Origin: Pseudomonadota bacterium
Lineage (GTDB): Bacteria > Babelota > Babeliae > Babelales > CAIQNR01
Direction of reading: 5' to 3'
Length of the DNA stretch: 64,000 bases
NCBI GenBank assembly: GCA_027487215.1
Contig: JAIYDZ010000006.1
Coordinates: forward strand, 135,762 to 199,761
Positions 45,790-62,587 of this stretch are shown in pieces. The notes under the pieces were generated by a model. That model did not search any database. It saw only the letters and a list, made by a program, of their open reading frames with translations, and was not told the origin of the DNA. The translations under genes and the position numbers were made by a program. Within the stretch, counting starts at the first letter, position 1; each line of letters opens with the position of its first letter.

Positions 45790-46407
45790 ATGCGTAATTA
45801 CTTGGTTATGGCCCCCTTACTCATTTTTTCTTCTGCATGTGCAGACATTTCATCGCTTGTGCAACGTCTTGAACTTTTTCACACACAGGCAGGAAACCGC
45901 GGCATTACAATCCCACAAGCTATGTACATATTTAATGAAACACTGAGCGAACTTGATCGGATTAACCAAGCACTTGACCCAATTGCCATCTCTGCCAATC
46001 AAGCCGTACAAGCAATGCTGATACTAAGCGCTGATATTAATAATGTATGCAAACAAATGAATCAACTGTGCGATAAACAACTGAATAAAATTTCTTCAAA
46101 ACTAACTACTAAAAAGGCCAGTCGCATTCCTGTTATTGAACGCGCAGTAAAAAAAGTACAAATTACCATCGCAAAGTTTGCTCTCAAAAAAAGAGCCGCA
46201 CTTCCTGATGTTGTCGACGCACTTGAAACTATTTTAACTGAAATGCGGGTCATAGAAGATGGTTTAAGAGATCTTATTGCTTGTTCTAACAGAGCAGCTG
46301 TATTAACTGTTACAACAGTATTGTCTCTAGGAATGATTAGCGAACGCATGTGCGACATGGTTGGAACATCTGATGGAGACTGTGCTCCACTACCATATGA
46401 CTTGTAA
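45790..46407 (+). CDS. Secreted helical protein, paralog pair member 1
   Basis: Signal peptide. It aligns with the next gene (..PVIERAVKKVQITI..VVDALETILTEMRVIEDGLRDL.. versus ..TVVEKAITRIEKAL..IVEALEVAITEITHVRDELRNL..). Confidence 0.6.
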   Translation: MRNYLVMAPLLIFSSACADISSLVQRLELFHTQAGNRGITIPQAMYIFNETLSELDRINQALDPIAISANQAVQAMLILSADINNVCKQMNQLCDKQLNKISSKLTTKKASRIPVIERAVKKVQITIAKFALKKRAALPDVVDALETILTEMRVIEDGLRDLIACSNRAAVLTVTTVLSLGMISERMCDMVGTSDGDCAPLPYDL

Positions 46408-46491
46408 CCATTGATGCTTAAAAAGGTTTTATTTATACTTGGCCGGATCTTAAAAAGTGATAATGTATCACCTGATTGAAAGGAATTTCTT

Positions 46492-47142
46492 ATGAAAAAA
46501 CTCTTATTGTGGTTTTCGCCTCTTCTTCTTTTATCGACCGCACATGCAATGCATACTCCTTTAGATACCACTCTTAATAATCTTTTAAGATGCAAAGTAA
46601 GAACACACGATAGTTCTCTTCCAAACATCATCGATGTACTAAGCAAAGCACTTGTTGAAATGCATGCCTTAAGAACTGATCTTGAATTCCTTTGTGTACA
46701 AGCAACCGATGCAACAAGCGCAGTCCTTCAACTTTCATCTGAAATCAATAGAATTTCTGAAAGCGTTCATGGTCTTATTGGTGGCGATGCACAACGCGTT
46801 ATCTTAAAAACACAAGATTTAAAACCTCGTCAAATCACCGTCGTAGAAAAAGCAATCACACGTATTGAAAAAGCTCTTTCAATGACAACACGTGATGGCG
46901 CACTTAATCTTGTAAAAATTGTGGAAGCTCTTGAAGTAGCAATTACAGAAATTACTCACGTGCGCGATGAACTTCGCAACTTGAATGCTACTTCAGTACG
47001 TGCAATTGCAACTATTAACGGAACAGCTCTTGCTATTGCAACACTTGCACAACGTGTTGGTGTATTAGTTGGTGAAGAGTCAGCTCCTGAAACTGAAACT
47101 ACTACAGCTACCGCAGAAATTGCTCCAACAGAAGCTGCTTAA
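46492..47142 (+). CDS. Secreted helical protein, paralog pair member 2
   Basis: MKKLLLWFSPLLLLSTAHA signal peptide. Paralogous to 45790..46407. The tail is T/E/A-rich. Confidence 0.65.
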   Translation: MKKLLLWFSPLLLLSTAHAMHTPLDTTLNNLLRCKVRTHDSSLPNIIDVLSKALVEMHALRTDLEFLCVQATDATSAVLQLSSEINRISESVHGLIGGDAQRVILKTQDLKPRQITVVEKAITRIEKALSMTTRDGALNLVKIVEALEVAITEITHVRDELRNLNATSVRAIATINGTALAIATLAQRVGVLVGEESAPETETTTATAEIAPTEAA

Positions 47143-47188: not shown

Positions 47189-48157
47189 TTATAATTTTTG
47201 AATAAATTCAGGAATTGAGACTGTTCCTTGCATAATATTATAAAGACCTTCAAACAATGGTAATGAAAGCTGTTGCGTAGCTATAAGTTGTTTAACAGAG
47301 ATAACTGAATTAAATGCTTCGGGAACAGCTTCTAAAGAAGCCTGAATTGAAGAAACTGATTCACCTTTTCCTACACGTTGGCCTGCTGCCAAATTTCTGC
47401 TGTACTTTCCAAACGCGGTCAAAACAAGATCACCAATTCCTGCTAGTCCCAGTAATGTTTCTGGTTGACCTTTGCATGAACTCATAAGTGTTTTTGTTTC
47501 TTCAAAAATTTTTACAAAAAATAATGATTTGGTGTTATCAGCATACCCGGCACCATCAAGCACACCAATACCAAAGGTAATCACATTTTTAAGGGCAGCA
47601 CATAACTGCACGCCCACCACGTCAGTTGCTGGAATGATTTTAAGGTACTCGTTTTCAAGAAGAGTTTTTAGATCTTTAAGCAGGGAACTCTGTCCCGTTG
47701 CAGCAATTACACCCGTCAGCTGTTTTTGCGCAAGATCTTTGGCAAAACTGGGACCACTGACCACTACATGCTGGGTTCTTGTGCCACAGGTTTCAAGTAA
47801 AATTTGCGAAGGAAGCAACGCTGTTTCCTGTTCAATACCTTTACTTAATAGTACAAATTTATGGTCTTGACGTATCTGAGAAGCAGCCGCAACAAAAACT
47901 GAACGTAAAAACTGTACCGGAACTGCTTCAAAAATCCATTCTGAAGATCTGCATGCTTCATGCAATGAAGTGGTTGCACTGATTGACTCATGAAGTACCA
48001 CATCGGGCAGAAACGCAGAATTAGTATGCTTTTGATTGATTTCATGAGCACACTCAGTTTCATGACTCCATATAATTACCCGGTGACCATTATGGGCAAG
48101 CACCGTAGCAATTGCAGTCCCCCATGCACCCGATCCCAAAATTGTTATTGGCTTCAT
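47189..48157 (-). CDS. gpsA: NAD(P)H-dependent glycerol-3-phosphate dehydrogenase
   Basis: ILGSGAWGTAIA dinucleotide fold, a GPSFA motif, and ALKNVITFG / GLAGIGDLVLT signatures. Confidence 0.9.
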   Translation of the reverse strand: MKPITILGSGAWGTAIATVLAHNGHRVIIWSHETECAHEINQKHTNSAFLPDVVLHESISATTSLHEACRSSEWIFEAVPVQFLRSVFVAAASQIRQDHKFVLLSKGIEQETALLPSQILLETCGTRTQHVVVSGPSFAKDLAQKQLTGVIAATGQSSLLKDLKTLLENEYLKIIPATDVVGVQLCAALKNVITFGIGVLDGAGYADNTKSLFFVKIFEETKTLMSSCKGQPETLLGLAGIGDLVLTAFGKYSRNLAAGQRVGKGESVSSIQASLEAVPEAFNSVISVKQLIATQQLSLPLFEGLYNIMQGTVSIPEFIQKL

Positions 48158-48846
48158 ACTCCGAAATTTCTTTTTATTTGTAAAAACTCAGCAACAGCCT
48201 GCTCGAGATGTCCTTTTGTTATTTCTGGCCAGAAACAATCAAGAAAGCACAGCTCACTATAGGCAGCTTGATACAACAAAAAATTACTGAGTCGTTTGAC
48301 TCCACCAGTTCTTATGACTAAATCAGGAGACGGAACACCCGCCATCCACAAACTCTCTTCAAATGTTTTCTCAGAAATGTCTGCCGGTTTAAGCAAACCC
48401 TGTTGTAATTTTTCAACGATCGTTTTAACTCCGGCCACAATTTCTTGACGACCACCATAACAGAACAAAATGTTAAGATGTAGCTTTGTATTGTTTTCAG
48501 TTGCTTTTTCAAGCTCTTGAGCTGTTTTAAGAACTTCCTGAGGGAACAACGCACGATCCCCCACAAACTTAATTTTAATTCCGTTTTTGATACTCTTTTC
48601 AAGCAAGTTCTGGGCTTGGGAAACAATTAAATGAAAAAGAAATTTTTTTTCCTGCTCAGTTCTTTTAAGATTCTCAAGAGAAAACGCATACACCGATAAA
48701 TAAACAATACCGCGCTCAAGACAAAATTCTACTGTTGTTTCAAGCGCTTGCACCCCACCACGACTATGGCCTAAAAAAACTTCCATGTGGTTTTTTTTTG
48801 CCCATCGACGGTTACCATCCATAACTACGGCCAGGTGTTGCATCAT
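48154..48846 (-). CDS. uppS: Undecaprenyl diphosphate synthase
   Basis: VVMDGNRRWAKK and RTGGVKRLSNFLLYQAAYSEL motifs. Confidence 0.9.
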   Translation of the reverse strand: MMQHLAVVMDGNRRWAKKNHMEVFLGHSRGGVQALETTVEFCLERGIVYLSVYAFSLENLKRTEQEKKFLFHLIVSQAQNLLEKSIKNGIKIKFVGDRALFPQEVLKTAQELEKATENNTKLHLNILFCYGGRQEIVAGVKTIVEKLQQGLLKPADISEKTFEESLWMAGVPSPDLVIRTGGVKRLSNFLLYQAAYSELCFLDCFWPEITKGHLEQAVAEFLQIKRNFGV

Positions 48847-49499
48847 TGAACAGCTCTTAGATAAACACGGTTAAAGAAGGAGGTTAAAACTGTACGAGCA
48901 GAAACAACATAATAATAAGAAGCGGTCATTCCTAAAGCAAAAATAAAACGTTCAAATGCAACTACAGGAATCAATGCCATCCAATCTGCTGGTGTTGAAA
49001 TCGGTCCCCAATACAAAAAGATCACACTTCCTACGGCATGCGCGAGAAAAGTACTGGTAAGAGCACGAGCAAAAATTATGGTACGCGGTAGAAAAGCAAA
49101 CAATACTGGAATTAACCAATAGAGTGCATACGGTGCAGCCAAAGATCCTACTGGATGAGCAATAAAGAGCGCAATACATGCCAAAAAAACTACTACCGGG
49201 TAAAGTCTTGAAGAAAATGCCCAATAGGTTGATGCACAGAGCGTAGGAATATAGTATACTAGCCCTGAAAGTGGTCCTCCACTCATAAGCAAGGTGAGAA
49301 GTATACGACCGATTGTCATAACTCCTACTCCGGCAACTCCCCATAATCCAGACAACGGTAATAAAACACTCACCAGTGAAAACTGAGTAAATGGATTGAT
49401 CGCTGTATTATTTAAAAGAGCGGCACACACTAAAAAAACTGATCCTACAAGAGCAGTTGCTGCCACAGAAAATGGTAAAACTTTGAATTGAGAGTTCAT
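48843..49499 (-). CDS. Polytopic membrane protein (about 6 TM), function unknown
   Basis: Hydrophobic 218-aa ORF translationally overlapping uppS. No family assigned. Confidence 0.6.
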   Translation of the reverse strand: MNSQFKVLPFSVAATALVGSVFLVCAALLNNTAINPFTQFSLVSVLLPLSGLWGVAGVGVMTIGRILLTLLMSGGPLSGLVYYIPTLCASTYWAFSSRLYPVVVFLACIALFIAHPVGSLAAPYALYWLIPVLFAFLPRTIIFARALTSTFLAHAVGSVIFLYWGPISTPADWMALIPVVAFERFIFALGMTASYYYVVSARTVLTSFFNRVYLRAVQ

Positions 49500-49605
49500 A
49501 GTACTGTATCCTTATGAGTAAGGGTAGGTGAATGATCACCGTATTAAGGTACTACGAACCTGGTAAAATTCAACCAAAAGTTATGACATCAAAAGAGGTA
49601 CTATT

Positions 49606-50286
49606 ATGAAATACAAAGCAATAATTTTCGATATGGACGGGACAATTGTTGATTCAGACCACATCTGGGACACCGTCACACGCGAACTCATTTTAAGTAA
49701 AGTCGCAGATGCCCAAGAACACCATCTTGAAGAAATTCAAAATAAAGTTAAAGGTCTCGCGCTTCATGCCAGTTGCCATGTTATTAAAGAATATTTTGAT
49801 CTTGAACATGAACTGGTCCATCTGATTGCAGAAAAAAAACAACGAGCGCTCCTTAAATACCAAGAACAGATCCATTTTATTGAGGGTTTTTTAGACTTCT
49901 TGCTAAAAGTACAGGCAACAGAACTCAAGATCGGTATTGCAACCAACGCTGACGACCACACCCTTGAAGCAAGCATTAAAAAACTTAAGCTTGATGTGAT
50001 CTTTGGAGAGCACATTTATAACATCACTCATGTAAACAATAAGCACAAACCTGCTCCTGATCTTTATTTACACGCAGCGGGTAAGCTTGGAATCGATCCA
50101 AAAGACTGTATTGCTATCGAGGATTCTCATCACGGCATTAGAGCAGCAGTGGACGCCGGTATGTTTTGTATTGGTATTAATACCTCAAAAAATAGAGAAC
50201 ATTTAAAAGAGTCTCACCTTATTATTGAACATTATGATGAGATTTGCCTTAAAACACTTTTATATAATAAAACTGATAAAAAATAA
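49606..50286 (+). CDS. HAD-superfamily hydrolase (beta-phosphoglucomutase/phosphatase-like, subfamily IA)
   Basis: Motif I AIIFDMDGTIVDS, motif II GIATNA, and motif IV AIEDSHHG. Confidence 0.85.
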   Translation: MKYKAIIFDMDGTIVDSDHIWDTVTRELILSKVADAQEHHLEEIQNKVKGLALHASCHVIKEYFDLEHELVHLIAEKKQRALLKYQEQIHFIEGFLDFLLKVQATELKIGIATNADDHTLEASIKKLKLDVIFGEHIYNITHVNNKHKPAPDLYLHAAGKLGIDPKDCIAIEDSHHGIRAAVDAGMFCIGINTSKNREHLKESHLIIEHYDEICLKTLLYNKTDKK

Positions 50287-50313
50287 TCTAAATTTAATCT
50301 AATCCTATCTTTT

Positions 50314-50356
50314 AAGCTTAAAAGAGTTGTATACATCTCTTTTAAGCTTTATTTAG
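50314..50356 (+). terminator. Probable terminator hairpin
   Basis: Perfect 13-bp stem AAGCTTAAAAGAG / CTCTTTTAAGCTT with a 10-nt loop. The T tract after it is weak. Confidence 0.5.
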
Positions 50357-50438
50357 TGTTATACTCCCATTTGACAACCAAAAGAGTCTAATTCATGCTA
50401 TTAAAAGGTATTTTAGGGGCTTTTAGGAACGATCTTAA

Positions 50439-51329
50439 ATGGAGAAACTCGTGAAAAAAAATTCACTTTTATTGGTAGTAGGACTTTGGTTTATGGCGCA
50501 CTCTTTTGCCGCTGAAACAGATACTATGATAACTTCAAAAAATTATGTCGCTAGTAACACCACAAAAAAAGATATTTTTTGTGATTTACATGGAGTGCTT
50601 TTAGTAAAAAACTTCCGTACGCTTATGTGTGGTGGAGTCGGGAATTTACTTTCAACAAAAGAAACTGTATACGGAAAGTTATCCCTACTTATCCAATTTA
50701 TTCTTGTTGCTGGAGACTACCGTTTTTACAAACAAATGTATGCACTGACCCATTTAAAGGATCAAGAAGGCCGCAGCCTTGGCAAAGATAAAATAACTGA
50801 AAGCTATTTTAATAGTATTAAAGATTTAGGGTATCACGATGTGTATGATGCCTTAGTATCATTTGCTAATAATATTTTTGTACCTAATGAAAAACTTATT
50901 GCTGATCTTAAAACCCTTAAAGCCCAAGGTCACAGACTTCATATTTTTTCAAATATTGGAAGCGCAACATTAAAAGATGCCCATACCAAATTTCCAGAGT
51001 TGTTTAGAATTTTTGATGACGCTCAGAACCGAATCAATCACGATATAGAAGAAGGCGAAATTTATACAATCTGGAAACCACAAAAAGCTGCATTTGATGC
51101 TGTTCTAGAGACAACAGGTGCAACCCCTGAAAACAGTATTATGATTGATGACAAACTGGTTAATCTTCCAACCGCCCAAGGTACCCAAGCTGCCGCTGCA
51201 AAAGCAGCAAAAAAAGGTTATTACCTTGAAACAGCTGATCCTTTATGGATGAATGGTAGAGGCGGCGTTCAGTACAGCAAAAAAAATCATGAAACTGCAA
51301 TCGAACAACTTAAAGAACTTTGTAAATAA
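50439..51329 (+). CDS. Signal-peptide-bearing HAD-like protein with a variant motif I (DLHGV)
   Basis: Hydrophobic N-terminus (NSLLLVVGLWFMAHSFA). IFCDLHGVLLV, HIFSNIG and MIDDKLVN correspond to HAD motifs I, II and IV. A GTG at 50451 is an alternative start. Confidence 0.6.
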   Translation: MEKLVKKNSLLLVVGLWFMAHSFAAETDTMITSKNYVASNTTKKDIFCDLHGVLLVKNFRTLMCGGVGNLLSTKETVYGKLSLLIQFILVAGDYRFYKQMYALTHLKDQEGRSLGKDKITESYFNSIKDLGYHDVYDALVSFANNIFVPNEKLIADLKTLKAQGHRLHIFSNIGSATLKDAHTKFPELFRIFDDAQNRINHDIEEGEIYTIWKPQKAAFDAVLETTGATPENSIMIDDKLVNLPTAQGTQAAAAKAAKKGYYLETADPLWMNGRGGVQYSKKNHETAIEQLKELCK

Positions 51330-51351
51330 TATTTATTAAATAGAGATTATC

Positions 51352-52029
51352 ATGAATAAACTGTTAATAGTATTTTCTCTCTGCGCTCTTTCATCTTCAA
51401 TTCTCGAATGTTTTCAATCGCTAGGGAGCAACTCAAGCGGAAGAAGAAGCGCATTTCAACCTGTTGCAAAACATGCTGCGATTGCAAAACCTGCTCCACT
51501 CTCTGGCCGTGAAACTCCAATGGCAGGTATCACATTCGAATCTGAAGAAGAAGAAGAAGAAACAATTACCTTTGAACAACGTCAAAGACAGATTAGTACT
51601 TCTTCATATGCATCATCATCTGAAGGCCGTAAAAGAACAGATAGCAGCTCTTCAACTGCTTCAAATGCATCATCAGCGGTAAGTATGTTTGGGGTTGAAA
51701 AAGAAAAAACACTGTATGAACAAACCTTAGAGGCTGCAGCGACAGCAACGGCTGAAATGATTAAAGCTGACGAAGAGGAACTAGACGCTCTTTTTACTGA
51801 TTTTACTCTTTCAAAAAAACCTACACAACCTTTTATCAATGAAGTCGAGCAACCATTTTTACACCACGCTGCCCCGGCTGTAATGCAAGGAGAAATACCT
51901 CACGCTCACGCAAATGCCAAAAAAGAAGAACGAAAAATTGCAATTGCAGCAAGAAGAAAGCAACGCATTGATCCAATGGAGCGCAGAGCAGAAATTTATA
52001 GACAAATAAATAAAAATTCTGATCTCTAA
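51352..52029 (+). CDS. Secreted low-complexity (S/E/A-rich) protein
   Basis: Signal peptide MNKLLIVFSLCALSSSILEC, an EEEEEE run and Ser-rich stretches. Confidence 0.55.
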   Translation: MNKLLIVFSLCALSSSILECFQSLGSNSSGRRSAFQPVAKHAAIAKPAPLSGRETPMAGITFESEEEEEETITFEQRQRQISTSSYASSSEGRKRTDSSSSTASNASSAVSMFGVEKEKTLYEQTLEAAATATAEMIKADEEELDALFTDFTLSKKPTQPFINEVEQPFLHHAAPAVMQGEIPHAHANAKKEERKIAIAARRKQRIDPMERRAEIYRQINKNSDL

Positions 52030-52110
52030 ACCAGAACAACGACAATAGAGTAATTGTCCTGCTAAAATTTTGTAATTAATATAATGAATGTTTTATAAAT
52101 GGAAATTATC

Positions 52111-52626
52111 ATGAAAAAACTGTTACTTGCACTCTCACTTTTTACCCTTGCATCTTCAACAAAATCTTTTGAATTCTCACCAAGCGTAGATGACCTCCAT
52201 CAACATCTTAGAAAGGCATCTCAAGAAATTGATGATACGCGCCAGAAATTTAAAGAAAAACCAAAAGACAGATGTAACAATTCTCCAAAGAAATCCCTCA
52301 GAAATACTATTAAAAAGATCGATAGTAAATCTGAAGTACCTCTTTCAATAGTAACCCAAGAACCAACAGGATTGGTGGTTTTTATAAATGCTTCAAGTCA
52401 AGATCTCACTTTTGTTAAAAAAATAAACTCTGCCCCAGGGCGCAGATCAGGAATGCTTGCTCAAGGGTGTTTTTTAGTGGCACCTGCTGATGGAACAACA
52501 TTCTTCTGTTTATTGCCACATTATGACGCTTATGAAATAAAAGATGATGCCAAGCTCTATGTAGTAATAAGAGATAATCCTCAAAGACACATGTATCGTA
52601 GATCGCTAAAACCAAAACACAGATAG
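52111..52626 (+). CDS. Hypothetical secreted protein
   Basis: The ATG at 52111 (MKKLLLALSLFTLASS) shares the upstream ATTATCATGAA.AAACTGTTA context with 51352. Confidence 0.55.
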   Translation: MKKLLLALSLFTLASSTKSFEFSPSVDDLHQHLRKASQEIDDTRQKFKEKPKDRCNNSPKKSLRNTIKKIDSKSEVPLSIVTQEPTGLVVFINASSQDLTFVKKINSAPGRRSGMLAQGCFLVAPADGTTFFCLLPHYDAYEIKDDAKLYVVIRDNPQRHMYRRSLKPKHR

Positions 52627-52664
52627 ACCATAAACTATTTTATATCAGCTAAATTTAAATAGTA

Positions 52665-52711
52665 AAAAAGAGTCTCAATAATGGCAAAAGCTTTTATTGA
52701 GACTCTTTTTT
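52665..52711 (+). terminator. Rho-independent terminator
   Basis: AAAAAGAGTCTCAATAA / TTATTGAGACTCTTTTT stem followed by a T-run. Confidence 0.75.
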
Positions 52712-52875
52712 ACTGTTTAAAAATAAAAATCAATTAACATCTTTAAGCTTAATTGATTCACTTTCAAAATATGTTATTATTCCAAAAACAGCTTTAATTA
52801 AAGCTATTTTTACTTTTTATATACAACAACGCTACACCTCACTTAATTTCATTTTACTTCAAGGAAATACTTTTA

Positions 52876-53940
52876 ATGAAAAAACTGATCTTTGTCTCTC
52901 TTACCCTTTTCTCATTTAATACCATTATTTACTCTGCAGAAGAAAATGATGGAACTCCTGATAGAAAAAAAGGCTGTTACAGAGAAAAAGCTGCCAGTCC
53001 TTATTTAATACTTTCAGAAGAAGAACATTTTGAAGACAGCGACGATGAAGAAAAAGAAGTTTCTGAAAAAATTGTTTTTATTGAACAACAAGAAGCAGGA
53101 AAATCTTTTCTTTTCAGCATAAAAACACCTGAAAAACCTTCTACACCTAATTGCCCACCTTTCTTTATCGCTCCTTCAACGTTCGATTCAATGGAATACC
53201 AAGAATCTCCACTCAAAAGCTATCGCCCTCAATCTTCTTGTGCAGAGGCTACTCCAGTTCCAGTAAAAAAAATAATCCCTACTTTCAGTCGACTACCATC
53301 AAGAAAACTCTTTGAACGATTAAACTTTTCTGGCTCATCTGCACCCAAACAGCCTTTATTAGATTCATCTGTTTGTGCAAACCCTATACAGCTTTTTGAT
53401 TATGATAAAAAGAAACAACTACACAATAAAACGTCACATCTTTCAGCTGACGCACAAGTAGAACCACTCATAGAGGATTTTGAAGAAGAAGAAGAACTCT
53501 GTGAAGAACTTGCACGATCCGCATCTGTATCGTGTTATGAGGGCTTTTATTCAACAACTCCCTCAAGCACAGCATTTGAAGCACCTCGTGGAGGATCAAG
53601 AAATTCAAGCATGGATAGCCAAGCGGTAAACAAACATTTTGAAGATTACAGCTCATCACCAGTCAATTTTGCAAAACGAAACTTTAGAGCTGCAAACGGA
53701 AACCAAGAATCACGATTTGCAACATCAACTCCTGTTAGTTTCGATCCAGCACTTCCTGCAGACCAACGGCCCAAAAGTAAAGCTCGCAGAAGTACTCCTG
53801 AAGTTCTTGCTGCAGCAGCAGTTGCTCGTAAAGAATTTGAGGCTTCAAGAGCACAAAGTGTCCCACCTAGCAAAATACAAGAGAAAGAAGAGGAAATTGA
53901 CACACGCGCGCAAAAAAAACATCGCACAAAACAACCTTAG
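52876..53940 (+). CDS. Secreted, largely disordered protein (S/P/E/K-rich)
   Basis: Signal peptide MKKLIFVSLTLFSFNTIIYSA, acidic runs (DSDDEEKE, EDFEEEEE) and a basic C-terminus. Confidence 0.55.
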   Translation: MKKLIFVSLTLFSFNTIIYSAEENDGTPDRKKGCYREKAASPYLILSEEEHFEDSDDEEKEVSEKIVFIEQQEAGKSFLFSIKTPEKPSTPNCPPFFIAPSTFDSMEYQESPLKSYRPQSSCAEATPVPVKKIIPTFSRLPSRKLFERLNFSGSSAPKQPLLDSSVCANPIQLFDYDKKKQLHNKTSHLSADAQVEPLIEDFEEEEELCEELARSASVSCYEGFYSTTPSSTAFEAPRGGSRNSSMDSQAVNKHFEDYSSSPVNFAKRNFRAANGNQESRFATSTPVSFDPALPADQRPKSKARRSTPEVLAAAAVARKEFEASRAQSVPPSKIQEKEEEIDTRAQKKHRTKQP

Positions 53941-54017
53941 AGGGTTAATTTTTAATCAAATTCCTTTGTGATATACTGCAAAGAATTTGGTAATTCTTGC
54001 TTACGAAAGGTTTTGTA

Positions 54018-55381
54018 TGAATGTTGGACTGTTTATAGGAGTAATGGTTGCGCTGAGCGCACTCTATCTAACTTTAGGATGGATGACTTCAAAGAAACAT
54101 GTCTCATCTCATGCTGACCTTTTTCTTGCAGGACGAGGACTCACTCTCTTTCCTTTGACTGCAACATTACTTGCCACTCAAATTGGCGGTGGAATGTTTA
54201 TTGGCACTGCACAAGATCCCTTTCGTGGTATTTTGTATGTTGCAGGATTAGTTCTTGGATTTCTGTTTTTGGGAATGGGCGTTGCTCAAAAATTTAGATC
54301 TTTCAATGTCGAAACTCTAGGTGGTATTTTTGGAACGCTTTATAAAAGTAAAACACTCCAATCAATCTGCGACTTAATTTCAATTGTTACCTTGTGCGGC
54401 ATTTTATTAAGTCAGGCGCTGGCAATGGAATCAGTAGTCAGAAGCTTTACTGGCCCGATGGGAGACTATTTATTTCCCGGCTTGTGGCTCACCATTGTGG
54501 TGTATACATTGCTTGGTGGACTCTATGCAGTGGTAATTACGGATGTTATACAGATTGGTATTATTATTGCTGTGTTTACGGCACTTTTTGCATACAGTCT
54601 TTTTACCAATCCGGTACCGTTTTTTACAGTTGATATGTATCACACCTTAGCAAAAATCTTTGAAAGCTCATCACTTTCAATTCCTGAAATAATAAAAATT
54701 GTAATGGTTGCAACCCTCTATTCCATGCTCACCCAAGATGTTGCTCAAAGATTTTTTGCAGCAAAGACACAAACAACCGCACGGTTAGCAGCACTCTATG
54801 CAAGTGTTCTGCTTTTTGCTTTTGCTATTATTCCTTTTTATTTTGGAATTCAGGCCCAGCTTCAAGGCCTTTCAGGGGCATGCAATCCCTTGTTTGCAGT
54901 TCTAGAAAAAACTGTTTCTGGACTTGCACTCGTGTTAGGAATGTGTGCACTTATGGCTGCACTATCATCAACAATTGACTCGCTCCTGTGCACAATATCT
55001 TCAATAATATGCAGTTTTGCATCGCCGTATCTGCGTTCTACCATAAAAAATGAAACCCATTTATCACAGATAATAATTGTTATATGTGGAGTAGGAATTT
55101 TAACCGGTTCCTATTTCTGTCCAAAACATATCATCGACACTTTAATTAGCAGTTATGAGCTAGCGACCGTGTGTCTTTTTGTCCCGGTTATTGCCGCGTG
55201 CATCAAACGTAAAGAGTCGCTGCATTACATTTCTGCTTACTATGCATTACTAGGCGGCTTTTTAGGCTTTATTGTCTGCGCAACAGTCAACATCCCCCTC
55301 TTTAAAAACTGGGGAACCTTTATCGCCTTAGGACTTTCTCTTATGGGATACCTGGTTGGTGATCTTGCCAGATCAAAGTAA
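54018..55381 (+). CDS. Sodium:solute symporter family transporter
   Basis: The ATG at 54018 follows GAAAGG. It has 12-13 TM segments and SSF-like motifs (FLAGRGLTLFPLTATLLATQIGGG). Confidence 0.85.
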
Positions 55382-55548
55382 GCCCTTTTGAAAGCATCTT
55401 ACCTCAGGCTTAAACAAGCTTAAAGCATGACCTGTTGCGGGCTTCCAGCGTTCTGATAAACTTAATTATAGTTAAATAAATGGGAGAGCTAAAAAAGCAA
55501 TTTTAAGCTCAAGTTCTCTTTTGGTGCTTATAAATGGAAGGTATTAGT

Positions 55549-56127
55549 ATGAAGAAATTATTACTGTTTTCGTTACTTCTTAGTTCTGCTGTTATTACAC
55601 CTGTATTTGCTAAAAAAACCACTCCGGTTGAAAAAATACAACAGTATGTTTCACTTACAGACGATTTGATTGAATACACTGCACTTAACCTTGCAGTTGA
55701 ACAGGTTGAACTGGACAAAGAAGGCATTGCTCTTCTTGCAGCGTGTGGACTGGCCCCTTCTATCATTGAAAGCAATAAAGACCTCACACCAGAAGTTCTT
55801 TCAACTATTACTTTAAAATCATATGAACTATTTAATAGTCCATTAGACGCAACAACTTTTGAAACTATTAACTCTGAGCTAGCTGAAGTGGAAGAAATGC
55901 TTACAGATCTTACTACTGTCAAAAATAAAATTGAGACAGGAAAAGCACTTATTACTCAGAACATCAAAACTTCTGACCTTCACTACTTTAAAGATCAACT
56001 TGCAGACATTACAGAACTTGAGCAAGAAGTTCAAAACTTACGCAACTTCTATCTTTTTAGCAAAGCAGCATTAGTTGGTCAGAAAAAAGCGGCTGAAGAA
56101 CTTGTAAAAACATCTGCTCAACAGTAA
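55549..56127 (+). CDS. Secreted helical protein, tandem array member 1
   Basis: MKKLLLFSLLLSSAVITPVFA follows GGAAGG. The ORF track's alternative start is 55534 (MEGISMKK..). Confidence 0.65.
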   Translation: MKKLLLFSLLLSSAVITPVFAKKTTPVEKIQQYVSLTDDLIEYTALNLAVEQVELDKEGIALLAACGLAPSIIESNKDLTPEVLSTITLKSYELFNSPLDATTFETINSELAEVEEMLTDLTTVKNKIETGKALITQNIKTSDLHYFKDQLADITELEQEVQNLRNFYLFSKAALVGQKKAAEELVKTSAQQ

Positions 56128-56161
56128 AAGTCTTTAATCGTTCTTAAATGGAAGGTATGTT

Positions 56162-56809
56162 ATGAAGAAAATTTTTTGGTTCTCAATAGCTGTAATAATT
56201 GTTTCTAGTGTGATTTTTTTTGCTAAATACAGCGAGTCTAATCGTATAGATTCATCAACTTCTGATATGCCTCTCCATCAGCTGCTCTACAAAACTACTG
56301 ATAAGAAAGAACTATCAATTGAAGGACTTAATCAATTTATCAGTTATATAGAACAGTTACTTGCTGATACAAAAATGAATTGTGATAAGAAAAAGTCTTA
56401 TTTAGAAAAATTAAATATTAATACTGATCAATTTGACCAACCATATTATCTTTCTGATAATGTTCTTGCAGAAATTGAAATTAAAGGATTTAAAGAAGTA
56501 TTTGCTATGTACCTATCCTCAAGAGACGTAACTGACTACTCATCTGAATATGCACGTCTTAGTGATTGTCTAAAGTCTATCGAAACAACCACACAAGAAT
56601 TTGTGCTCATTTTTAAAGAAGTTGATTTAGCTTTTAACTTGCTTACTACAGCACATAAACTTAATCCTTGCGATCATTACTCAGAAGCTCTTAATAAAAT
56701 ACAATCTTTTAAAAAAGAATATTATAGTTTCTTGAATTTTCAACTTGCCTATGATGCTTTTTTCAAAGGCGCTATGAGAGCACTTAAAACAGTCTCTAAT
56801 CGTTCATAA
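56162..56809 (+). CDS. Membrane-anchored/secreted helical protein, tandem array member 2
   Basis: MKKIFWFSIAVIIVSSVIFFA start. The C-terminus ..MRALKTVSNRS is shared with member 3. Confidence 0.65.
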   Translation: MKKIFWFSIAVIIVSSVIFFAKYSESNRIDSSTSDMPLHQLLYKTTDKKELSIEGLNQFISYIEQLLADTKMNCDKKKSYLEKLNINTDQFDQPYYLSDNVLAEIEIKGFKEVFAMYLSSRDVTDYSSEYARLSDCLKSIETTTQEFVLIFKEVDLAFNLLTTAHKLNPCDHYSEALNKIQSFKKEYYSFLNFQLAYDAFFKGAMRALKTVSNRS

Positions 56810-56853
56810 ATGGAAGGTATTAGTATGAAGAAGCTATTATTATTTTCGTTACT
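56780..56853 (+). repeat. 74-nt conserved inter-cassette junction, copy 1
   Basis: GCACTTAAAACAGTCTCTAATCGTTCATAAATGGAAGGTATTAGTATGAAGAAGCTATTATTATTTTCGTTACT. It matches 57431..57504 at 69/74 positions. Confidence 0.9.
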
Positions 56854-57460
56854 ACTCAGTTGTACACATTCTCTTGAGATTTGTGCAGATAATAAACAAC
56901 AAGAACCCACTACTCTAGTTGCTCCCTTAGAAACTTTACAGCAATTAGAAACAACTCTTAAAAAGCATGAACAAGAAATAAGAGCAATGGTCGCACCTGA
57001 TCAATTAGAGAAGTATGAACAGCTGCTTCCTAAAATTAATATCACCGCTTTAGAGTTTTTGGTGTGTTGTGGCTTTCCTTGGCTCTCAATTATAAAACAT
57101 GTTTCTGACTCGCTTGCTTTTTTTAAATCTATTAAAAAAGATTCTTTTGAAACAAAGCTTGCCTACTATCAATCACTTACTCCTGAAACTTCTCTTGATA
57201 GTCAACAGGTATCACACATCAATTTACAATTAAAACAACTTCTTGAAAAAATAGATCAAAAGAACAATGAAATTTTTGAAATTCGAAAAACTATAACAAC
57301 AATTGAGCAAGCTTTAACAAACTCAAAAAAATCTACAACAAACGATTACATCGATGCTCTTAATAAAACTTATTATCATCTTAATGATTTAAATAGCATC
57401 AATAGAGCTCTGGTAGAAGGTGAAAAAAAAGCACTTAAGACAGTTTTTAATCGTTCATAA
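56825..57460 (+). CDS. Secreted helical protein, tandem array member 3
   Basis: MKKLLLFSLLLSCTHS start. Alternative start at 56810, immediately after the upstream TAA. The C-terminus is ..KKALKTVFNRS. Confidence 0.65.
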   Translation: MKKLLLFSLLLSCTHSLEICADNKQQEPTTLVAPLETLQQLETTLKKHEQEIRAMVAPDQLEKYEQLLPKINITALEFLVCCGFPWLSIIKHVSDSLAFFKSIKKDSFETKLAYYQSLTPETSLDSQQVSHINLQLKQLLEKIDQKNNEIFEIRKTITTIEQALTNSKKSTTNDYIDALNKTYYHLNDLNSINRALVEGEKKALKTVFNRS

Positions 57461-57504
57461 ATGGAAGGTATTAGTATGAAGAAATTATTATTATTTTCGT
57501 TACT
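57431..57504 (+). repeat. 74-nt conserved inter-cassette junction, copy 2
   Basis: GCACTTAAGACAGTTTTTAATCGTTCATAAATGGAAGGTATTAGTATGAAGAAATTATTATTATTTTCGTTACT. Partial copies lie at 55527..55577 and 56127..56175. Confidence 0.9.
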
Positions 57505-58090
57505 GTTTGTTTCTGGTATATGTGCTAATCCACAATCAGGCGATACTAAACGCACTGAAAAAATGCTTACTCATACTTCAAAAAAAATTGACGAAATACT
57601 TACTGTGCATGGCAAAGTGATAGAAAAACTCAAACCGTTTGATCAAAAACGTTCAATGAGAGAATTTGAACTTATTGAAAAAGAAGTAGCACACATTATT
57701 CGTGGGTTTGAACTTAACTTTTCATTTTTCACAGAGTTTTTTGCAGGCGATACATGCCAAGCATTAAAGGATCACCCTTTTGTATGGTACTACTCAGAGC
57801 TTCAAAAAAGTAATTCTACCTTAACTCGTGTTAATAACATGTGCAAAAAACACATCAAGCTTCTCACTAAAAAACTCAATCACAAAAAACTCGCTGAAGA
57901 AGATAAGCTGCGTTACGAGCGCTGCCTTAAACAAGTTGAAAACACAATGAATGAAGCAACTGATCTAATTATTGCTCTTTCACATGTTGAAAAGTTTATC
58001 AAACTCAGTGATTCATATGTTCGTGAAAAACAACTTTATAGCAACACGACCAAACCGGTATCAAACTTAATTATTGTTTCTCATCGTTAA
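57476..58090 (+). CDS. Secreted helical protein, tandem array member 4
   Basis: MKKLLLFSLLFVSGICA start. Alternative start at 57461. The C-terminus has diverged (..NLIIVSHR). Confidence 0.65.
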   Translation: MKKLLLFSLLFVSGICANPQSGDTKRTEKMLTHTSKKIDEILTVHGKVIEKLKPFDQKRSMREFELIEKEVAHIIRGFELNFSFFTEFFAGDTCQALKDHPFVWYYSELQKSNSTLTRVNNMCKKHIKLLTKKLNHKKLAEEDKLRYERCLKQVENTMNEATDLIIALSHVEKFIKLSDSYVREKQLYSNTTKPVSNLIIVSHR

Positions 58091-58763
58091 TTGAGTTTAG
58101 TTGACACCCTGTGTGTTTATGCAAATGATTGAAGGCTTCTGTTAGATCGTCCGTTACAAACAGTAACGATGCATCGTGCGATAACAGGAGCCCTTCTTTT
58201 TGTGCTCCCTCAACCCATTCAAGCAGCGGTTTCCAGTAGGCTGTATTTATAAGAACCACTGGAACCCTTTCAAGGTGTCCTGTCTGCATCAATGTTAAAG
58301 TCTCAAACAGCTCATCCAAGGTGCCAAAGCCTCCCGGAAATACTACAAATCCATCTGCGTAGCGTGTAAGCAGCCATTTTCGAGTAAAAAAATAACGAGT
58401 AGTAATGAGTTCATCCAAACATCCATTTTCACGCTCTTGTGATAGATTTTCAACGGTAATTCCGACGCTCTTTCCACGAAGATCTGGATCTTGATCAAGA
58501 GCACCACAATTCATTGCCTGCATAATTCCTGGGCCACCGCCCGTAATAACTGATATCTGATGCGTCAGGAGCATATTTGAAAGTTTGTGTGCATGTTGGG
58601 TAAAAGGATGATATTGAGAAAGACGTGTTCCTCCAAATACCGAAACAACCGGTCGACGTAACTTTGATAACGTCCACACCCCACGCACTAATCTGAAATA
58701 ATCATCAAGAAGATTGATCATCAGATCATAAATACCGTACATACTATAAAAAAATGACAACAT
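58071..58763 (-). CDS. LOG family (TIGR00730) Rossmann-fold protein
   Basis: VFGGTRLS, GGGPGIMQA and PGGFGTLDELFE motifs. Confidence 0.85.
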   Translation of the reverse strand: MLSFFYSMYGIYDLMINLLDDYFRLVRGVWTLSKLRRPVVSVFGGTRLSQYHPFTQHAHKLSNMLLTHQISVITGGGPGIMQAMNCGALDQDPDLRGKSVGITVENLSQERENGCLDELITTRYFFTRKWLLTRYADGFVVFPGGFGTLDELFETLTLMQTGHLERVPVVLINTAYWKPLLEWVEGAQKEGLLLSHDASLLFVTDDLTEAFNHLHKHTGCQLNSINDEKQ

Positions 58764-58787: not shown

Positions 58788-59627
58788 ATGATACTGAGAT
58801 TTGCTTTTTTGAGTAAAGTACTGTTCATTCTTATTTTCCAGATTCCACTCTGGTCACAAGAACCATCCTTTGTTGTTCTTATCTGTTCATACAATAATGA
58901 ACAATGGGTTGATGCTAACTTAGAATCGGTACGCTCACAAACCTATAAACAGTACCGAATCATCTATATCGATGATTGTTCAACTGACAACACCTTCAAA
59001 AAAGTTTCTGCTTTCTGTGACCAAAATCCTGCCATTCCGGTAACGCTTATTAAAAATAAACATCGTGCATATAAACTTGCAAACTTGTACGATGCAATTC
59101 ATTCATCGTGCAAAAATAATGAAATTGTAGTTGAGCTTGATGGCGATGATTGTTTTTTTAACTCCACTGTTCTTGAAACATTAAAAACGGTTTACACCAC
59201 AACAAATGCATGGATGACCTATGGGGGATTTATCACCTGGCCGCATCAGTACAAACATTTAAAAACTTCCACAATACCTCCAGAGATTGTACTTTCAAAC
59301 AGCTTTCGATACTTTTACAAAACTGGCTATATATTTATGGCATTGCGTAGTTTCTATACGTGGCTTTTTAAAAATATTAAAAAAGAAGATCTTCAAGAAA
59401 ATGGAGAATTTTTTAAATGCGGATCAGATATTGCAACGATGATTCCGATGTTTGAAATGGCAGGCGATCATTTCTATTACCTTACAGAGCAACTCTATTT
59501 ATACAATACCGATACCGGTATTAATGATTTTATAAGACATCCAAAAGGACAAAAGGAGGTTTCTTCCCTGATTGAAAAGAAACCTCCTTATACACGTATT
59601 ACTGAGCAACCACCTTTGGAGTGGTAA
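58788..59627 (+). CDS. Signal-anchored family 2 (GT-A) glycosyltransferase, short paralog
   Basis: VVLICSYNNEQWVDANLESVRSQTYKQYRIIYIDDCSTDNT and a DxD motif (ELDGDDCF). Confidence 0.8.
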   Translation: MILRFAFLSKVLFILIFQIPLWSQEPSFVVLICSYNNEQWVDANLESVRSQTYKQYRIIYIDDCSTDNTFKKVSAFCDQNPAIPVTLIKNKHRAYKLANLYDAIHSSCKNNEIVVELDGDDCFFNSTVLETLKTVYTTTNAWMTYGGFITWPHQYKHLKTSTIPPEIVLSNSFRYFYKTGYIFMALRSFYTWLFKNIKKEDLQENGEFFKCGSDIATMIPMFEMAGDHFYYLTEQLYLYNTDTGINDFIRHPKGQKEVSSLIEKKPPYTRITEQPPLEW

Positions 59628-61077
59628 ATGCAAAACCTATACGAGTTATTGTTGGGTCTTGAATAAAGAGCATGCCTGGCGCAAAAAGATTAGGAAGCAA
59701 ACTCTGGGTAATGAGTGTGTCATCAAGGTACGCAATGCGCTCTCTGATTAACTCTTTGCGTGACAACATGCAGAGTCTTTGATCTCCAGAAATCCATGAT
59801 CGATCTGCGTATGCCAGACGCCACACATAATATCCATCATGAAGATGGACGCACGGTGCTTGTGAAGGATCAGTAATAGCAACTGCTGGGAAACATCCAA
59901 ACGCTTGTGCTTCATCAATAACATTGACCATTTCTTGTGCATGCAACGGTTCAACACAACGCATACCATTATGAATAAAGAACACATGTTCACTACTGTA
60001 CCACCAGTTATGAAGTGATTTTACCAATAGCTGTTTTAAACTTAAAAAGTTTTGGCGGTTCATTAAATGGCCATCTTGATACTGGGCAATTGAAAATCCT
60101 TGTGTATCAACCACATAAATATTACTGATAGCGTCCACATGCTCAATGCATGAATCAATCGTGTAAGAACAGTCATCGGAAAACGAGTCTGCAATCACAA
60201 AAATATCAATTCCTTTAAACTGTTTTTTCGTGCGTGCTGGTGGAACCATTACTGGTTCATACTTCTTTTTATGAAGCAAAATATTACTCGCTACAATTTG
60301 AGGAACTCTATTTACTTTAAAATCATTAATAGGTGACTGCACGTTATGAATATAAATAATCTTATCAATATATTTAAAGTGTGAACCGACCATTTCCATC
60401 ATTGGATAAGAAAACGCAAGGTCACAACTTGCAGGGTAAAACTTACCAAATGAGGCATCGTCATGATCCCATAAAAGATCTTCAAGTTTGATTCGTTTAA
60501 ATACCCATGCATAAAATGTACGCAGTTGACCAGGAGTCCAGTAGGTTTCACGATAAAGACGATCATTTACTATTTTCTGCGGTGTCTGTTTGCAATAACC
60601 ACGCACACCCTTTGGCCAATCCTCAAATGATCCATAGGTAAGCCATACATTCTGATCTTCATACGTTTCATTTAAAAGTGAAAGTACTTTAGTGTCAGGA
60701 AACCAGTCATCTCCATCAAGCTGTACTACAATGTCCCAATCATCACACAAATGAGTCGCAATATAATGGTTAGCAAGAGCACCTTTGCGTTCAGTATTTG
60801 CAATGATATGAACACGATCTTGCATGCCGCATTCACGGACATAATCAGCTACTAATTGAGCCGTTCCATCGTGCGAGCAATCATCAACATAAATTGCATG
60901 CCAATTTGAATATTCTTGGTTAAAAAGACTATCAAGATTATGTTTGTACCACAGTGCGTTATTGTAAGAAGGAATAACCACAGCCATTCGCTTTTCTTCT
61001 TTAACAACAGCTGCACACTCTAAAAAGAATAATCCTGCTGCAACAAACAGAAAGATTTTTTTATAACTGAACTTCAT
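59599..61077 (-). CDS. Signal-anchored GT-A glycosyltransferase with an extra C-terminal domain of about 220 aa
   Basis: VVIPSYNNALWYKHNLDSLFNQEYSNWHAIYVDDCSHDGT and QLDGDDWF. I do not recognise the C-terminal half. Confidence 0.8.
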   Translation of the reverse strand: MKFSYKKIFLFVAAGLFFLECAAVVKEEKRMAVVIPSYNNALWYKHNLDSLFNQEYSNWHAIYVDDCSHDGTAQLVADYVRECGMQDRVHIIANTERKGALANHYIATHLCDDWDIVVQLDGDDWFPDTKVLSLLNETYEDQNVWLTYGSFEDWPKGVRGYCKQTPQKIVNDRLYRETYWTPGQLRTFYAWVFKRIKLEDLLWDHDDASFGKFYPASCDLAFSYPMMEMVGSHFKYIDKIIYIHNVQSPINDFKVNRVPQIVASNILLHKKKYEPVMVPPARTKKQFKGIDIFVIADSFSDDCSYTIDSCIEHVDAISNIYVVDTQGFSIAQYQDGHLMNRQNFLSLKQLLVKSLHNWWYSSEHVFFIHNGMRCVEPLHAQEMVNVIDEAQAFGCFPAVAITDPSQAPCVHLHDGYYVWRLAYADRSWISGDQRLCMLSRKELIRERIAYLDDTLITQSLLPNLFAPGMLFIQDPTITRIGFAFTTPKVVAQ

Positions 61078-62587
61078 CTACTTCTCCAGACATAAGGGGA
61101 GCCATTACATATAATTCATCAGCCGGCGCACTACTTTGAACTGCAGCAAGAAACGTGTGGAAATTGGGATGGAAAATCTCAAGGTTTTCTACCATTTTTA
61201 TACACTCTTCCTTTTTTAAAAGAAGACCGCTGCAATCAGTAATCTGCTCAAAAACATCATGATACAACCATGAGTTAAAAAGATACGCATTATAAGAAGC
61301 GCCCCATGGAGCAACATCATATCCTTTTTGCTCAAGAATCTCTTTATTACCTTTTCCAAATACAACACCTGTAGAACCAGTTGCTTCAACCGTTTTTAAA
61401 AGCTCACCAAAATTAAGATGATCTGCTTCTAGTAAATGCTGTGTTGAAAGTAATACGTACTGACCTCGACATTTTTGCAATGACTTTAAAAGTTTGTCTT
61501 TAAAGTTCACGCGATGCGTATACACCTGATCAAGAGAATAACCAATATCAAGTGTTGAAAAATGATTACAATAGGTACGCATTGTTCTGTTTTTACGAGG
61601 ATCTTCATTGCCTACTTTTATCACAGAATCAAAAAACACTCCTTCAGATTCACGCTTTTTAAAAAATCGTGCAACATCGTGCTCTTCTTCCATGAAAATT
61701 ACATAAGAAAGCAATTGTTCTTTATCGTGTTGAGTAAATGAAGTTTCTTTATATTGAGGATAGGGCTTTCTATTGCGAGTAATTAAATCGTAATAAATTT
61801 GAAATTCGAATTTTGATTTAAAAAGATTAATCGCATTATCGGTGTTATAGACATATAAAATATCATGAATGTATTTATAACGATCACGAGCCATTTCAAA
61901 AAGCGGCAACATAAACGCAACGTCTGTTGCCATCATCAAAAACTTACCGTTGTGCATAAGGTCTTGTGCTTTAATTTTCTTAAAAAGTCCTGCATAAAAA
62001 GTACGGGGATGCACACCACGAAAACCAAGCTGTCTAAAACCATATTGTGCTAGCTCTTCTTTGGTGTAATCGCGATATCCTATTTTTTGACCTGTTGAAC
62101 TGCGAGACGCATTTCCCACTGAAAGCAATACACCTTCATCGGTATACAAATCATTAAGATATGAAAGAACTTCATTATGACTCAACCAGTCATCCCCATC
62201 CAGTAGAAGAATAATGGCATTATCGTTACATGCATGAATAGCTTTATAACGATTGAAAAGTTGACCATAACGTACTTTGTTTTTAATCAGTAAACATTTA
62301 TGTTCTAAATTTCGCTCTTGTATATAAAGCTCAACCAGATCACCCGTTCCATCTGGAGAACAATCGTCAAGGTAAATCACGCGATAGTTAGAATAGTTTT
62401 GAGAAAATACTGAATCAAGATTTTTCTTATACCAGTCTTTATTATTATAAGAAGGTATAACCACCACAATCTCCTTTTCAGGAAATCTCTGGGATTCAGA
62501 CTCTCGGCAAATAGTAACAGAATTTAAAAATAAACTGAGCACTAAACAGCTCATTAAAAAGTTCACCTTAAAACGTTTTACTGACAT
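61061..62587 (-). CDS. Signal-anchored GT-A glycosyltransferase with an extra C-terminal domain of about 220 aa
   Basis: VVIPSYNNKDWYKKNLDSVFSQNYSNYRVIYLDDCSPDGT and LLDGDDWL. It overlaps the downstream paralog by 17 nt. Confidence 0.8.
   Translation of the reverse strand: MSVKRFKVNFLMSCLVLSLFLNSVTICRESESQRFPEKEIVVVIPSYNNKDWYKKNLDSVFSQNYSNYRVIYLDDCSPDGTGDLVELYIQERNLEHKCLLIKNKVRYGQLFNRYKAIHACNDNAIILLLDGDDWLSHNEVLSYLNDLYTDEGVLLSVGNASRSSTGQKIGYRDYTKEELAQYGFRQLGFRGVHPRTFYAGLFKKIKAQDLMHNGKFLMMATDVAFMLPLFEMARDRYKYIHDILYVYNTDNAINLFKSKFEFQIYYDLITRNRKPYPQYKETSFTQHDKEQLLSYVIFMEEEHDVARFFKKRESEGVFFDSVIKVGNEDPRKNRTMRTYCNHFSTLDIGYSLDQVYTHRVNFKDKLLKSLQKCRGQYVLLSTQHLLEADHLNFGELLKTVEATGSTGVVFGKGNKEILEQKGYDVAPWGASYNAYLFNSWLYHDVFEQITDCSGLLLKKEECIKMVENLEIFHPNFHTFLAAVQSSAPADELYVMAPLMSGEVDEVQL

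Follow-up and report, generated by a model that had tools for sequence, protein, structure and literature searches.

The 64,000-nucleotide (nt) stretch of contig JAIYDZ010000006.1 analysed here (hereafter the window) was found to contain a tandem array of four genes, m1 to m4, bounded by a sodium:solute symporter gene on the upstream side and a LOG / lysine-decarboxylase-like gene on the downstream side. The array, carried by a bacterium of the Dependentiae (TM6, Babeliales-like), is best read, with a probability of roughly 0.65, as a strain-variable, operon-like set of genes for Sec-exported, all-helical proteins, which occupies the fixed site between the symporter and LOG genes and is shuffled by recombination at the near-identical junctions (J0 to J3) present at the gene boundaries. 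The features of the locus are as follows (aa, amino acids; ORF, open reading frame; L numbers denote the sequences compared with the window).

53987..55381, + strand: SSF sodium:solute symporter, the upstream flank (Pfam PF00474, E 7.5e-14), conserved as the anchor of the locus in all relatives
55456..55548, + strand: leader, or probably the promoter region, of the array, where the tract of ~99% identity with strain B has its left end
55527..55577, + strand: J0, half a junction ahead of m1, comprising only the ribosome-binding core and signal-peptide codons
55549..56127, + strand: m1, an ORF of 192 aa for a Sec-signal helical protein, with a premature stop relative to the C-terminus of the family
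56126..56184, + strand: J1, a degraded junction in which an out-of-frame relic is followed by the ribosome-binding core, a 4-nt variant of the spacer and the m2 start
56162..56809, + strand: m2, an ORF of 215 aa for a Sec-signal helical protein, missing from strain B
56780..56853, + strand: J2, a full junction: ALKTVSNRS*, then the ribosome-binding core with its spacer, then MKKLLLFSLL
56825..57460, + strand: m3, 211 aa, a Sec-signal helical protein, not in strain B and present in strain C with other neighbours
57431..57504, + strand: J3, the full junction between m3 and m4, whose right half is joined to the left half of J1 in strain B
57476..58090, + strand: m4, 204 aa, the last gene of the array, apparently of a different and older protein family, sharing the junction-type 5′ end only
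58071..58763, - strand: LOG / lysine-decarboxylase-like gene, the downstream flank (Pfam PF03641, E 1.4e-31), syntenic in L060, L061, L064 and L062

An earlier note made from the sequence had described four consecutive genes of about 200 aa with near-identical junctions and barely alignable bodies, and this description was borne out. All four genes were found as + strand ORFs of 192-215 aa with MKK-hydrophobic N-termini and gaps of 15-34 nt, and their bodies share 19-28% of amino acids. The junctions J2 and J3 were found to be identical at 69/74 nt, followed by J0 and J3 at 47/51 nt, and the two arms of J1 matched at 29/32 nt (left) and 19/29 nt (right), so that the degraded copies named in the note were upheld as well. 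Ungapped nucleotide identity was 0.90-0.93 within the junction vs 0.3-0.5 elsewhere. The longest exact repeats were 34 nt (J0/J3) and 36 nt (J2/J3), the 35-nt junction core was present in 2 copies in the window vs 0.00 expected from shuffles, and the exact sequence ATGGAAGGT was found in the window at the four junctions only.

The junction was found to contain the last ~9 codons of a gene (ALKTV[S/F]NRS) with the TAA stop, followed by the ribosome-binding core AAATGGAAGG with a spacer of 4-5 nt, and then by ATGAAGAAATTATTATTATTTTCGTTACT, the first ~10 signal-peptide codons (MKKLLLFSLL). The C-terminal motif kept at the ends of array genes was G-x-KKALKT-x-NRS. The distance from stop to start was 15 nt at J2 and J3, and 15, 22 or 34 nt across junctions including those of relatives; the shared frame of m2, m3 and m4, to which the earlier note had drawn attention, is true but trivial, being due to the 15-nt spacer. 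The left side of J0 showed no significant likeness to the left arms of the other junctions, and the possible relic proposed upstream of m1 fell within the controls, its score being equalled or exceeded by 46-471 of 500 shuffles. Directly after the m1 stop, at 56130-56147, the codons GTC TTT AAT CGT TCT TAA (VFNRS*) were found in another frame, also in strain B; this relic of a C-terminus indicates that m1 ends prematurely (…ELVKTSAQQ*) and that its original C-terminus was lost. No inverted repeats were found at the junctions.

The ATG of the core was followed by ~7 nt and ATGAAAAAA also before the window genes at 2319, 11817, 50439 and 52099, in the form ATGGAG or ATGGAA, and AAATGGAAGG, 5-7 nt and ATGAARAA were found before secreted-protein genes in three unrelated Dependentiae assemblies. 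This recurrence in the window and in Dependentiae assemblies indicates that the centre of the junction is the ordinary ribosome-binding region of the lineage. The real start is the second ATG (MKK...), and the upstream ATG(GAAGG) belongs to the ribosome-binding site and is not a start. The upstream ATG, within ATGGAAGG, is out of frame and runs into TGA in J1 (ATG at 56148) and in both L001 junctions. The ATG of the ATGGAG / ATGGAA(GG) motif was often in frame with the real start (2319, 11817, 50439, 52099, 55534, 56810 and 57461), and false N-terminal extensions from it were seen as MEGIS-, MENY-, MEKL- and MEII-; the Logan call of m1 (197 aa) contains the same error. Three successive secreted genes, each behind AAATGGAAGG, were observed at 894-5136 of L046 (Babeliales metagenome-assembled genome, JBAZAX010000008.1), and tandem secreted genes with similar 5′ contexts may be common in Dependentiae. 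A search of genome contigs with the junction pattern gave 56 single matches at chance level, three of them in Dependentiae, and no second array; in metagenome contigs it gave one chance match, near which the ORFs were unlike those of this locus.

The content of the array was compared at syntenic sites of relatives, retrieved via symporter orthologues (100, 89, 61, 54 and 53% identity) and a few family matches; among the matches listed, the sources of the symporter relatives give them as Candidatus Dependentiae, Babeliales or TM6. The three related arrays seen were all fragmentary, and strains B and C were seen without the right end of the array. The following contents were found between the symporter and LOG.

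Window: m1-m2-m3-m4
Strain B (L063, ENA ERZ27280207; symporter 3′ end 97.6% identical in aa): m1, a hybrid junction of J1-left and J3-right, and m4, without m2 and m3
Strain C (L059, from the metagenome of strain B; symporter 89% in aa): novel member A; L001 continues with the end of A, m3 and novel member C
Relative D (L062, JGI; m4-like protein 60% in aa): an m1-like gene (35-37% in aa), an m4-like gene and the LOG tail, with a junction unlike that of the window
L060/L061 (symporter 61%): one 85-aa gene and a probable remnant
L064 (TARA; symporter 54%): no array gene, the symporter abutting LOG
L065/L066 (symporter 53%): three m4-family paralogues without conserved junctions

Since the content differs from relative to relative, with 0 to 3 genes in the distant ones, the site is hypervariable; the array was not fixed in length or order (m1-m4 in strain B, A-m3-C in strain C). 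An m1-like gene beside an m4-like gene is probably the older state, as this adjacency is common to strain B and relative D (by parsimony). At 11450-12041 of L060, the 85-aa secreted gene was followed by ~330 nt resembling frame-disrupted coding sequence, probably a pseudogenised member of ~200 aa, and the same arrangement was found identically in L061. In the array-less L064 (9274-10736, TARA), the symporter gene overlaps LOG and a DDE transposase gene (PF01609) is present directly beside LOG.

The breakpoints between strains were found to fall largely in the junctions, where the earlier note had proposed to look for them. In strain B, the ~99% identity of L063 to the window began at ~55456 and ended at AATCGTTC, inside the junction that follows m1; L063 then continued with the right half of J3 into m4, which is the hybrid junction. 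In strain C, each 30-nt block of L001 between the m3 ATG and the last m3 codons matched the window at 93-100%, and identity was ~25% past both junctions; at J2 the identity between window and strain C begins at the inner ATG of the junction. All tract ends but one were located inside junctions; the exception was the left end of the m1 tract, which lies in the leader, ~90 nt upstream of the m1 start.

The age of the exchanged cassettes was found to differ from that of the flanks. The synonymous divergence (dS, Nei-Gojobori) between strain B and the window was 0.36 in the symporter 3′ end, 0.013 in m1 and 0.49 in the 5′ part of m4, and between strain C and the window it was 1.03 in the symporter and 0.16 in m3. 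The nucleotide identity to the window was 98.6% for m1 (strain B) and 94.2% for m3 (strain C). The raw mismatches of strain B were 8/576 in m1, against 19/246 at the end of the symporter gene and 33/228 in m4 (Fisher p = 1e-5 and 1e-12). Such uneven dS points to whole cassettes being traded between lineages far more recently than the flanks split. The ratio of nonsynonymous to synonymous divergence (omega) between strains was ~1 for m1, where 8 differences only are available, 0.23 for m3 and 0.18-0.19 for m4.

The non-coding spacer was found to be GGTATTAGTATG in J0 of strain B as well as in three window junctions (J0, J2 and J3), and GGTTTATTATG in 3/3 junctions of strain C, despite the orthologous m3. 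A spacer uniform within a genome and different between genomes is the signature of concerted evolution by recombination. The suggestion of the earlier note, that homogenised gene boundaries enable unequal recombination and cassette shuffling, was thus supported by the array content, the breakpoints, the dS values and the spacers.

As the junction pieces are alike in every member, each gene boundary offers 34-36 nt that match exactly and 74-88 nt at ~90% identity. On these junctions general homologous recombination would anchor. Unequal crossing-over within the array would lead to the loss or duplication of whole ORFs, the m1-m4 array of strain B being an example, and double crossovers with the DNA of co-occurring relatives would replace or insert whole ORFs, as proposed for m1 and m3. 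An incoming body would gain a ribosome-binding site and an export signal ready-made, and the same exchanges would homogenise the junctions within a genome. General homologous recombination is favoured here, as the most economical mechanism, because no recombinase turned up among the neighbours scanned, and RecA-type recombination is presumably the agent. Two Pfam scans of neighbour proteins (nine and ten) and the Pfam matches of the syntenic genes of L060 showed neither a recombinase nor an integrase or transposase; the scanned proteins are part of the ORFs, those at 47189-50286 and 59599-62587 being judged by synteny with L060 only.

The genes of the array are presumably co-transcribed. The scan of the array for promoters and terminators gave no signal above the shuffled expectation, and the absence of promoter- or terminator-like signals standing out inside the array fits co-transcription. 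A promoter scan found no consensus sigma-70 site in the leader (55456..55548), and the leader motif CTGATAAACTT..TATAGTTAAAT.AATGG.GAGA was retained in strain C. The LOG gene is convergent with m4, their 3′ ends overlapping by 20 nt (58071-58090), and no terminator-like hairpin was found between them.

Several observations weigh against shuffling at the junctions as a full account. Within m4, the alignment of L063 1042-1269 with 57476-57703 was ~80% identical over the first ~140 nt and 100% identical over the next 85 nt; this step requires at least one breakpoint inside a body, so that the junctions are preferred and not exclusive sites. Synonymous differences were found in the signal-peptide codons of the junctions, at 2-4 per 10 codons, which indicates that the likeness of the junctions comes partly from selection on the peptide and not from recent conversion. 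The exact identity of 34-36 nt lies close to the shortest length at which RecA-dependent exchange is efficient in E. coli. The sequences compared are metagenome contigs of 1-5 kb, the window containing the sole complete array available. L059 was joined to L001 not by a spanning read but because their ends overlap by 19 nt, the reading frame runs on across the join and both have the same junction variant.

The same synonymous differences also favour an account in which the junctions are alike solely by purifying selection on the ribosome-binding site, the signal peptide and the C-terminal motif, and in which the arrays differ by ordinary gain and loss of genes. This account gains further from the core AAATGGAAGG..ATGAARAA standing before unrelated secreted genes, in other Dependentiae as well as in this window, and from the G-x-KKAL(K/E)T motif, whose conservation at the level of protein extends to member A and to the distant relative D. 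It is nevertheless judged unlikely, because the non-coding spacer, constant inside each genome, changes from one genome to the other at orthologous junctions, because the m3 tract has its two ends, the m1 tract its right end and strain B its m1-m4 fusion within junctions, and because the rare serine codon TCG was kept in J0, J2, J3, L001 and L063. The disparity between junctions ~93% identical and bodies sharing 19-28% of amino acids would also be expected from a recent tandem duplication followed by very fast diversifying selection on the mature parts with the signal region frozen (conotoxin-like), as would the weak m1-m2 and m2-m3 similarity and the omega of ~1 for m1, which comprises 8 differences only. 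The bodies were, however, found to be stable between strains (m1 98.6% and m3 94.2% in nt; omega 0.23 for m3 and 0.18-0.19 for m4), and m4 is unrelated to the other members, has a 60% orthologue in a distant relative and stands beside an m1-like gene already in relative D. From these three points it follows that the bodies are old and the identity of the junctions is young, which makes a recent duplication very improbable.

The junction might instead be a structured RNA element for translational coupling, RNA processing or regulation, as the earlier note had allowed. The stop is present 15 nt before the next start with the ribosome-binding site between them, and TTCATA and TATGAA are complementary on paper. 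When the six junction RNAs were folded, their stability was no better than that of shuffles (z +0.76 to -1.0), the TTCATA/TATGAA hairpin was missing from every minimum-energy structure, and there was variation in the length of the spacer (4 or 5 nt) as well as in the distance from stop to start (15, 22 or 34 nt). The folding thus gave no support to a coupling or processing element, and this alternative is considered highly improbable. The least credible of the alternatives is that the four-gene order is an assembly chimera, in which cassettes of co-occurring strains were stitched together at the junction repeats, although related strains with other arrangements do co-occur in at least one metagenome and the k=31 assembly breaks at J0 and J2. 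Records of the window's proteins come from a single NCBI contig of 340,427 nt and from the Logan assemblies of run SRR16126834. The Logan contig L067 (k=31) was 100% identical to 50001-55559 and stops inside J0, and L068 was found to be exactly 55534-56826, so that the m1-J1-m2 adjacency was assembled independently and base-perfectly. The k=31 breaks fall exactly at repeats of at least 31 nt, as expected, and the exact repeats of 34-36 nt are far below the read length and the usual final k; together with the reproduced m1-J1-m2 order and the 340-kb source contig this makes a chimera unlikely, J2 and J3 being taken from the assembled contig.

The proteins of the array were found to belong to more than one family. 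In BLASTP without signal peptides, m1 and m2 matched with E 3e-3 and m2 and m3 with E 2e-4 (7e-4 at full length), followed by no match for m4. In hhalign, the m1/m2/m3 group and the m4 group (m4, P0124 and three L065 paralogues) matched with a probability of 0.3%. The single family of four assumed in the earlier note therefore holds in part: m1-m3 are weakly related, and m4 is not detectably related to them and appears to have the junction-type 5′ end alone in common. The signal ends, placed by eye, were VFA|K in m1, FFA|K in m2, ICA|D in m3 and ICA|N in m4, and m3 was also found to contain LLSC at residue 13.

No Pfam family was found above cut-off for the array proteins, the Pfam scan showing no DUF576 or lipoprotein signature, and their profile searches against the PDB gave coiled-coil noise only (E 0.0086 or weaker). 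A word-indexed search with m3 gave one relative, P0001 (93% identical in aa, 94.2% in nt). An exhaustive HMMER profile search of 1.84 billion representatives gave 4 matches, all of this lineage: the m3-like P0001, P0122 (m2 itself), P0123 (m1 at 97%) and the m4-like P0124 at 60%. The m1 orthologue of relative D was 35-37% identical, and the relatives of m4 were P0124 (60% identical, relative D) and the homologues E_g1-3 in L065. The AlphaFold model of m3 was all-helical with a predicted local distance difference test score (pLDDT) of 51, and that of m4 contained four long helices with a pLDDT of 52.9, both being of low confidence. A literature search on secreted gene families of Dependentiae gave nothing relevant. 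As a guess, the array proteins may act at the interface with a protist host and may have been diversified by an arms race, in view of their Sec-type signals, helical bodies, lineage restriction and strain variability, the fast-evolving secreted neighbours and the protist-associated phylum.

The surroundings of the array were found to contain further secreted-protein genes. At 51352-53940, upstream of the symporter, three signal-peptide proteins were observed, which are glutamate- and serine-rich (E/S-rich) and of low complexity and share 45-58% with their counterparts at 1008-3149 of L059, vs 89% for the symporter. In strain C, two separate ORFs (177 and 145 aa) take the place of the 354-aa protein at 52876-53940. 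Beside gpsA, at 45790-47142, two more secreted paralogues were found in tandem (205 and 216 aa; BLASTP E 5.6e-14), and their counterpart pair of 209 and 200 aa (56% identity) occupies the same position at 2649-3909 of L065. Three family-2 glycosyltransferase genes are present after LOG at 58788-62587, and these were syntenic in L060, L064 and L065 even without LOG or the array. No tandem repeats were found by Tandem Repeats Finder in 55300-58200.

The Dependentiae live in obligate association with protists, and their dealings with the host are almost wholly uncharted. The array provides a concrete set of orphan secreted proteins, and as its cassettes are exchanged far faster than the surrounding genome they are prime candidates for host-interaction factors. 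For annotation, the locus is a warning: in arrays of this kind, assemblies with a short k break and start codons are easily placed too far upstream. It is possible, as a tentative extension of junction shuffling, that the junction is a selected 'plug-in' module, a recombinase-free cassette system by which any ORF body set between two junctions would gain a ribosome-binding site together with an export signal and would join an expressed operon. If so, co-infecting strains of Dependentiae would swap host-interaction proteins, even of unrelated families such as m4, and the array would be a functional analogue of the integron arising from homologous recombination alone.

Among known systems, the upstream and downstream homology sequences of Borrelia vlp/vsp, Anaplasma msp2 and Helicobacter bab contain conserved 5′ and 3′ ends around a divergent middle, which anchor gene conversion. 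In such cassette systems of Borrelia, Anaplasma and Helicobacter, silent promoterless cassettes are copied to one expression site within a single genome, followed by antigen variation during infection. Unlike the silent-cassette systems (Borrelia vls/vlp and the Neisseria pilS type), each member of the present array was found to contain a ribosome-binding site, a start, a signal peptide and a stop, and the variation is between strains. The array also differs from integron arrays in that no attC-like inverted repeat, no stable junction fold and, among the scanned neighbours, no integrase were found.

The Mycoplasma vpma (M. agalactiae) and vsp (M. bovis) clusters vary by site-specific inversion through the adjacent tyrosine recombinase Xer1, with sites in the 5′ untranslated region (UTR) (PMC2268961). 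As in the present array, the 5′ UTR and signal-peptide codons are conserved across members and the mature parts differ, but those clusters have genes in both orientations, a single promoter, lipoproteins and internal repeats (PMC2268961). The genes of the present array are co-directional with their own ribosome-binding sites, contain conserved 3′ ends as well and no internal tandem repeats, and have no recombinase among the scanned neighbours. The immunity arrays of the type VII secretion system (esaG, tsaI) likewise consist of non-identical tandem genes whose number and composition vary between strains via homologous recombination (PMC9484751). Those immunity proteins are cytoplasmic and similar over their whole length, and are not known to have a boundary-confined anchor or export signal.

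The closest likeness is to the Staphylococcus aureus lpl cluster of genomic island nuSa-alpha, where strain differences can be explained by unequal crossing-over and by double crossovers between strains (Tsuru and Kobayashi 2008, PMC2568036). There, too, genes of exported proteins with a presumed action on the host stand in tandem with a short conserved stretch, present once per gene, as the site of homologous recombination (PMC2568036), and strain rearrangements break in the conserved stretch, as in the L063 hybrid junction and at the limits of similarity of L001; deletions, substitutions and translocations are found in lpl. The conserved stretch of lpl is in the middle of the ORF, so that the unit comprises a 3′ half, the intergenic region and the next 5′ half and gives chimeric proteins (PMC2568036), whereas the anchor found here is the gene boundary and the exchanged unit one whole mature protein. 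Unlike the paralogue cluster of lpl, the members here are not one family, and two unrelated families share the anchor. The kind of system is thus already known, namely recombination-shuffled tandem clusters of exported proteins, and this style of recombination-driven variation is now found in a little-studied phylum. Distinctive here are the boundary-located anchor, its sharing by unrelated families, the recombinase-free neighbourhood as scanned, the phylum and the orphan protein families; an anchor coincident with the gene boundary, by which whole proteins and not halves are exchanged, complements the lpl cluster of S. aureus.

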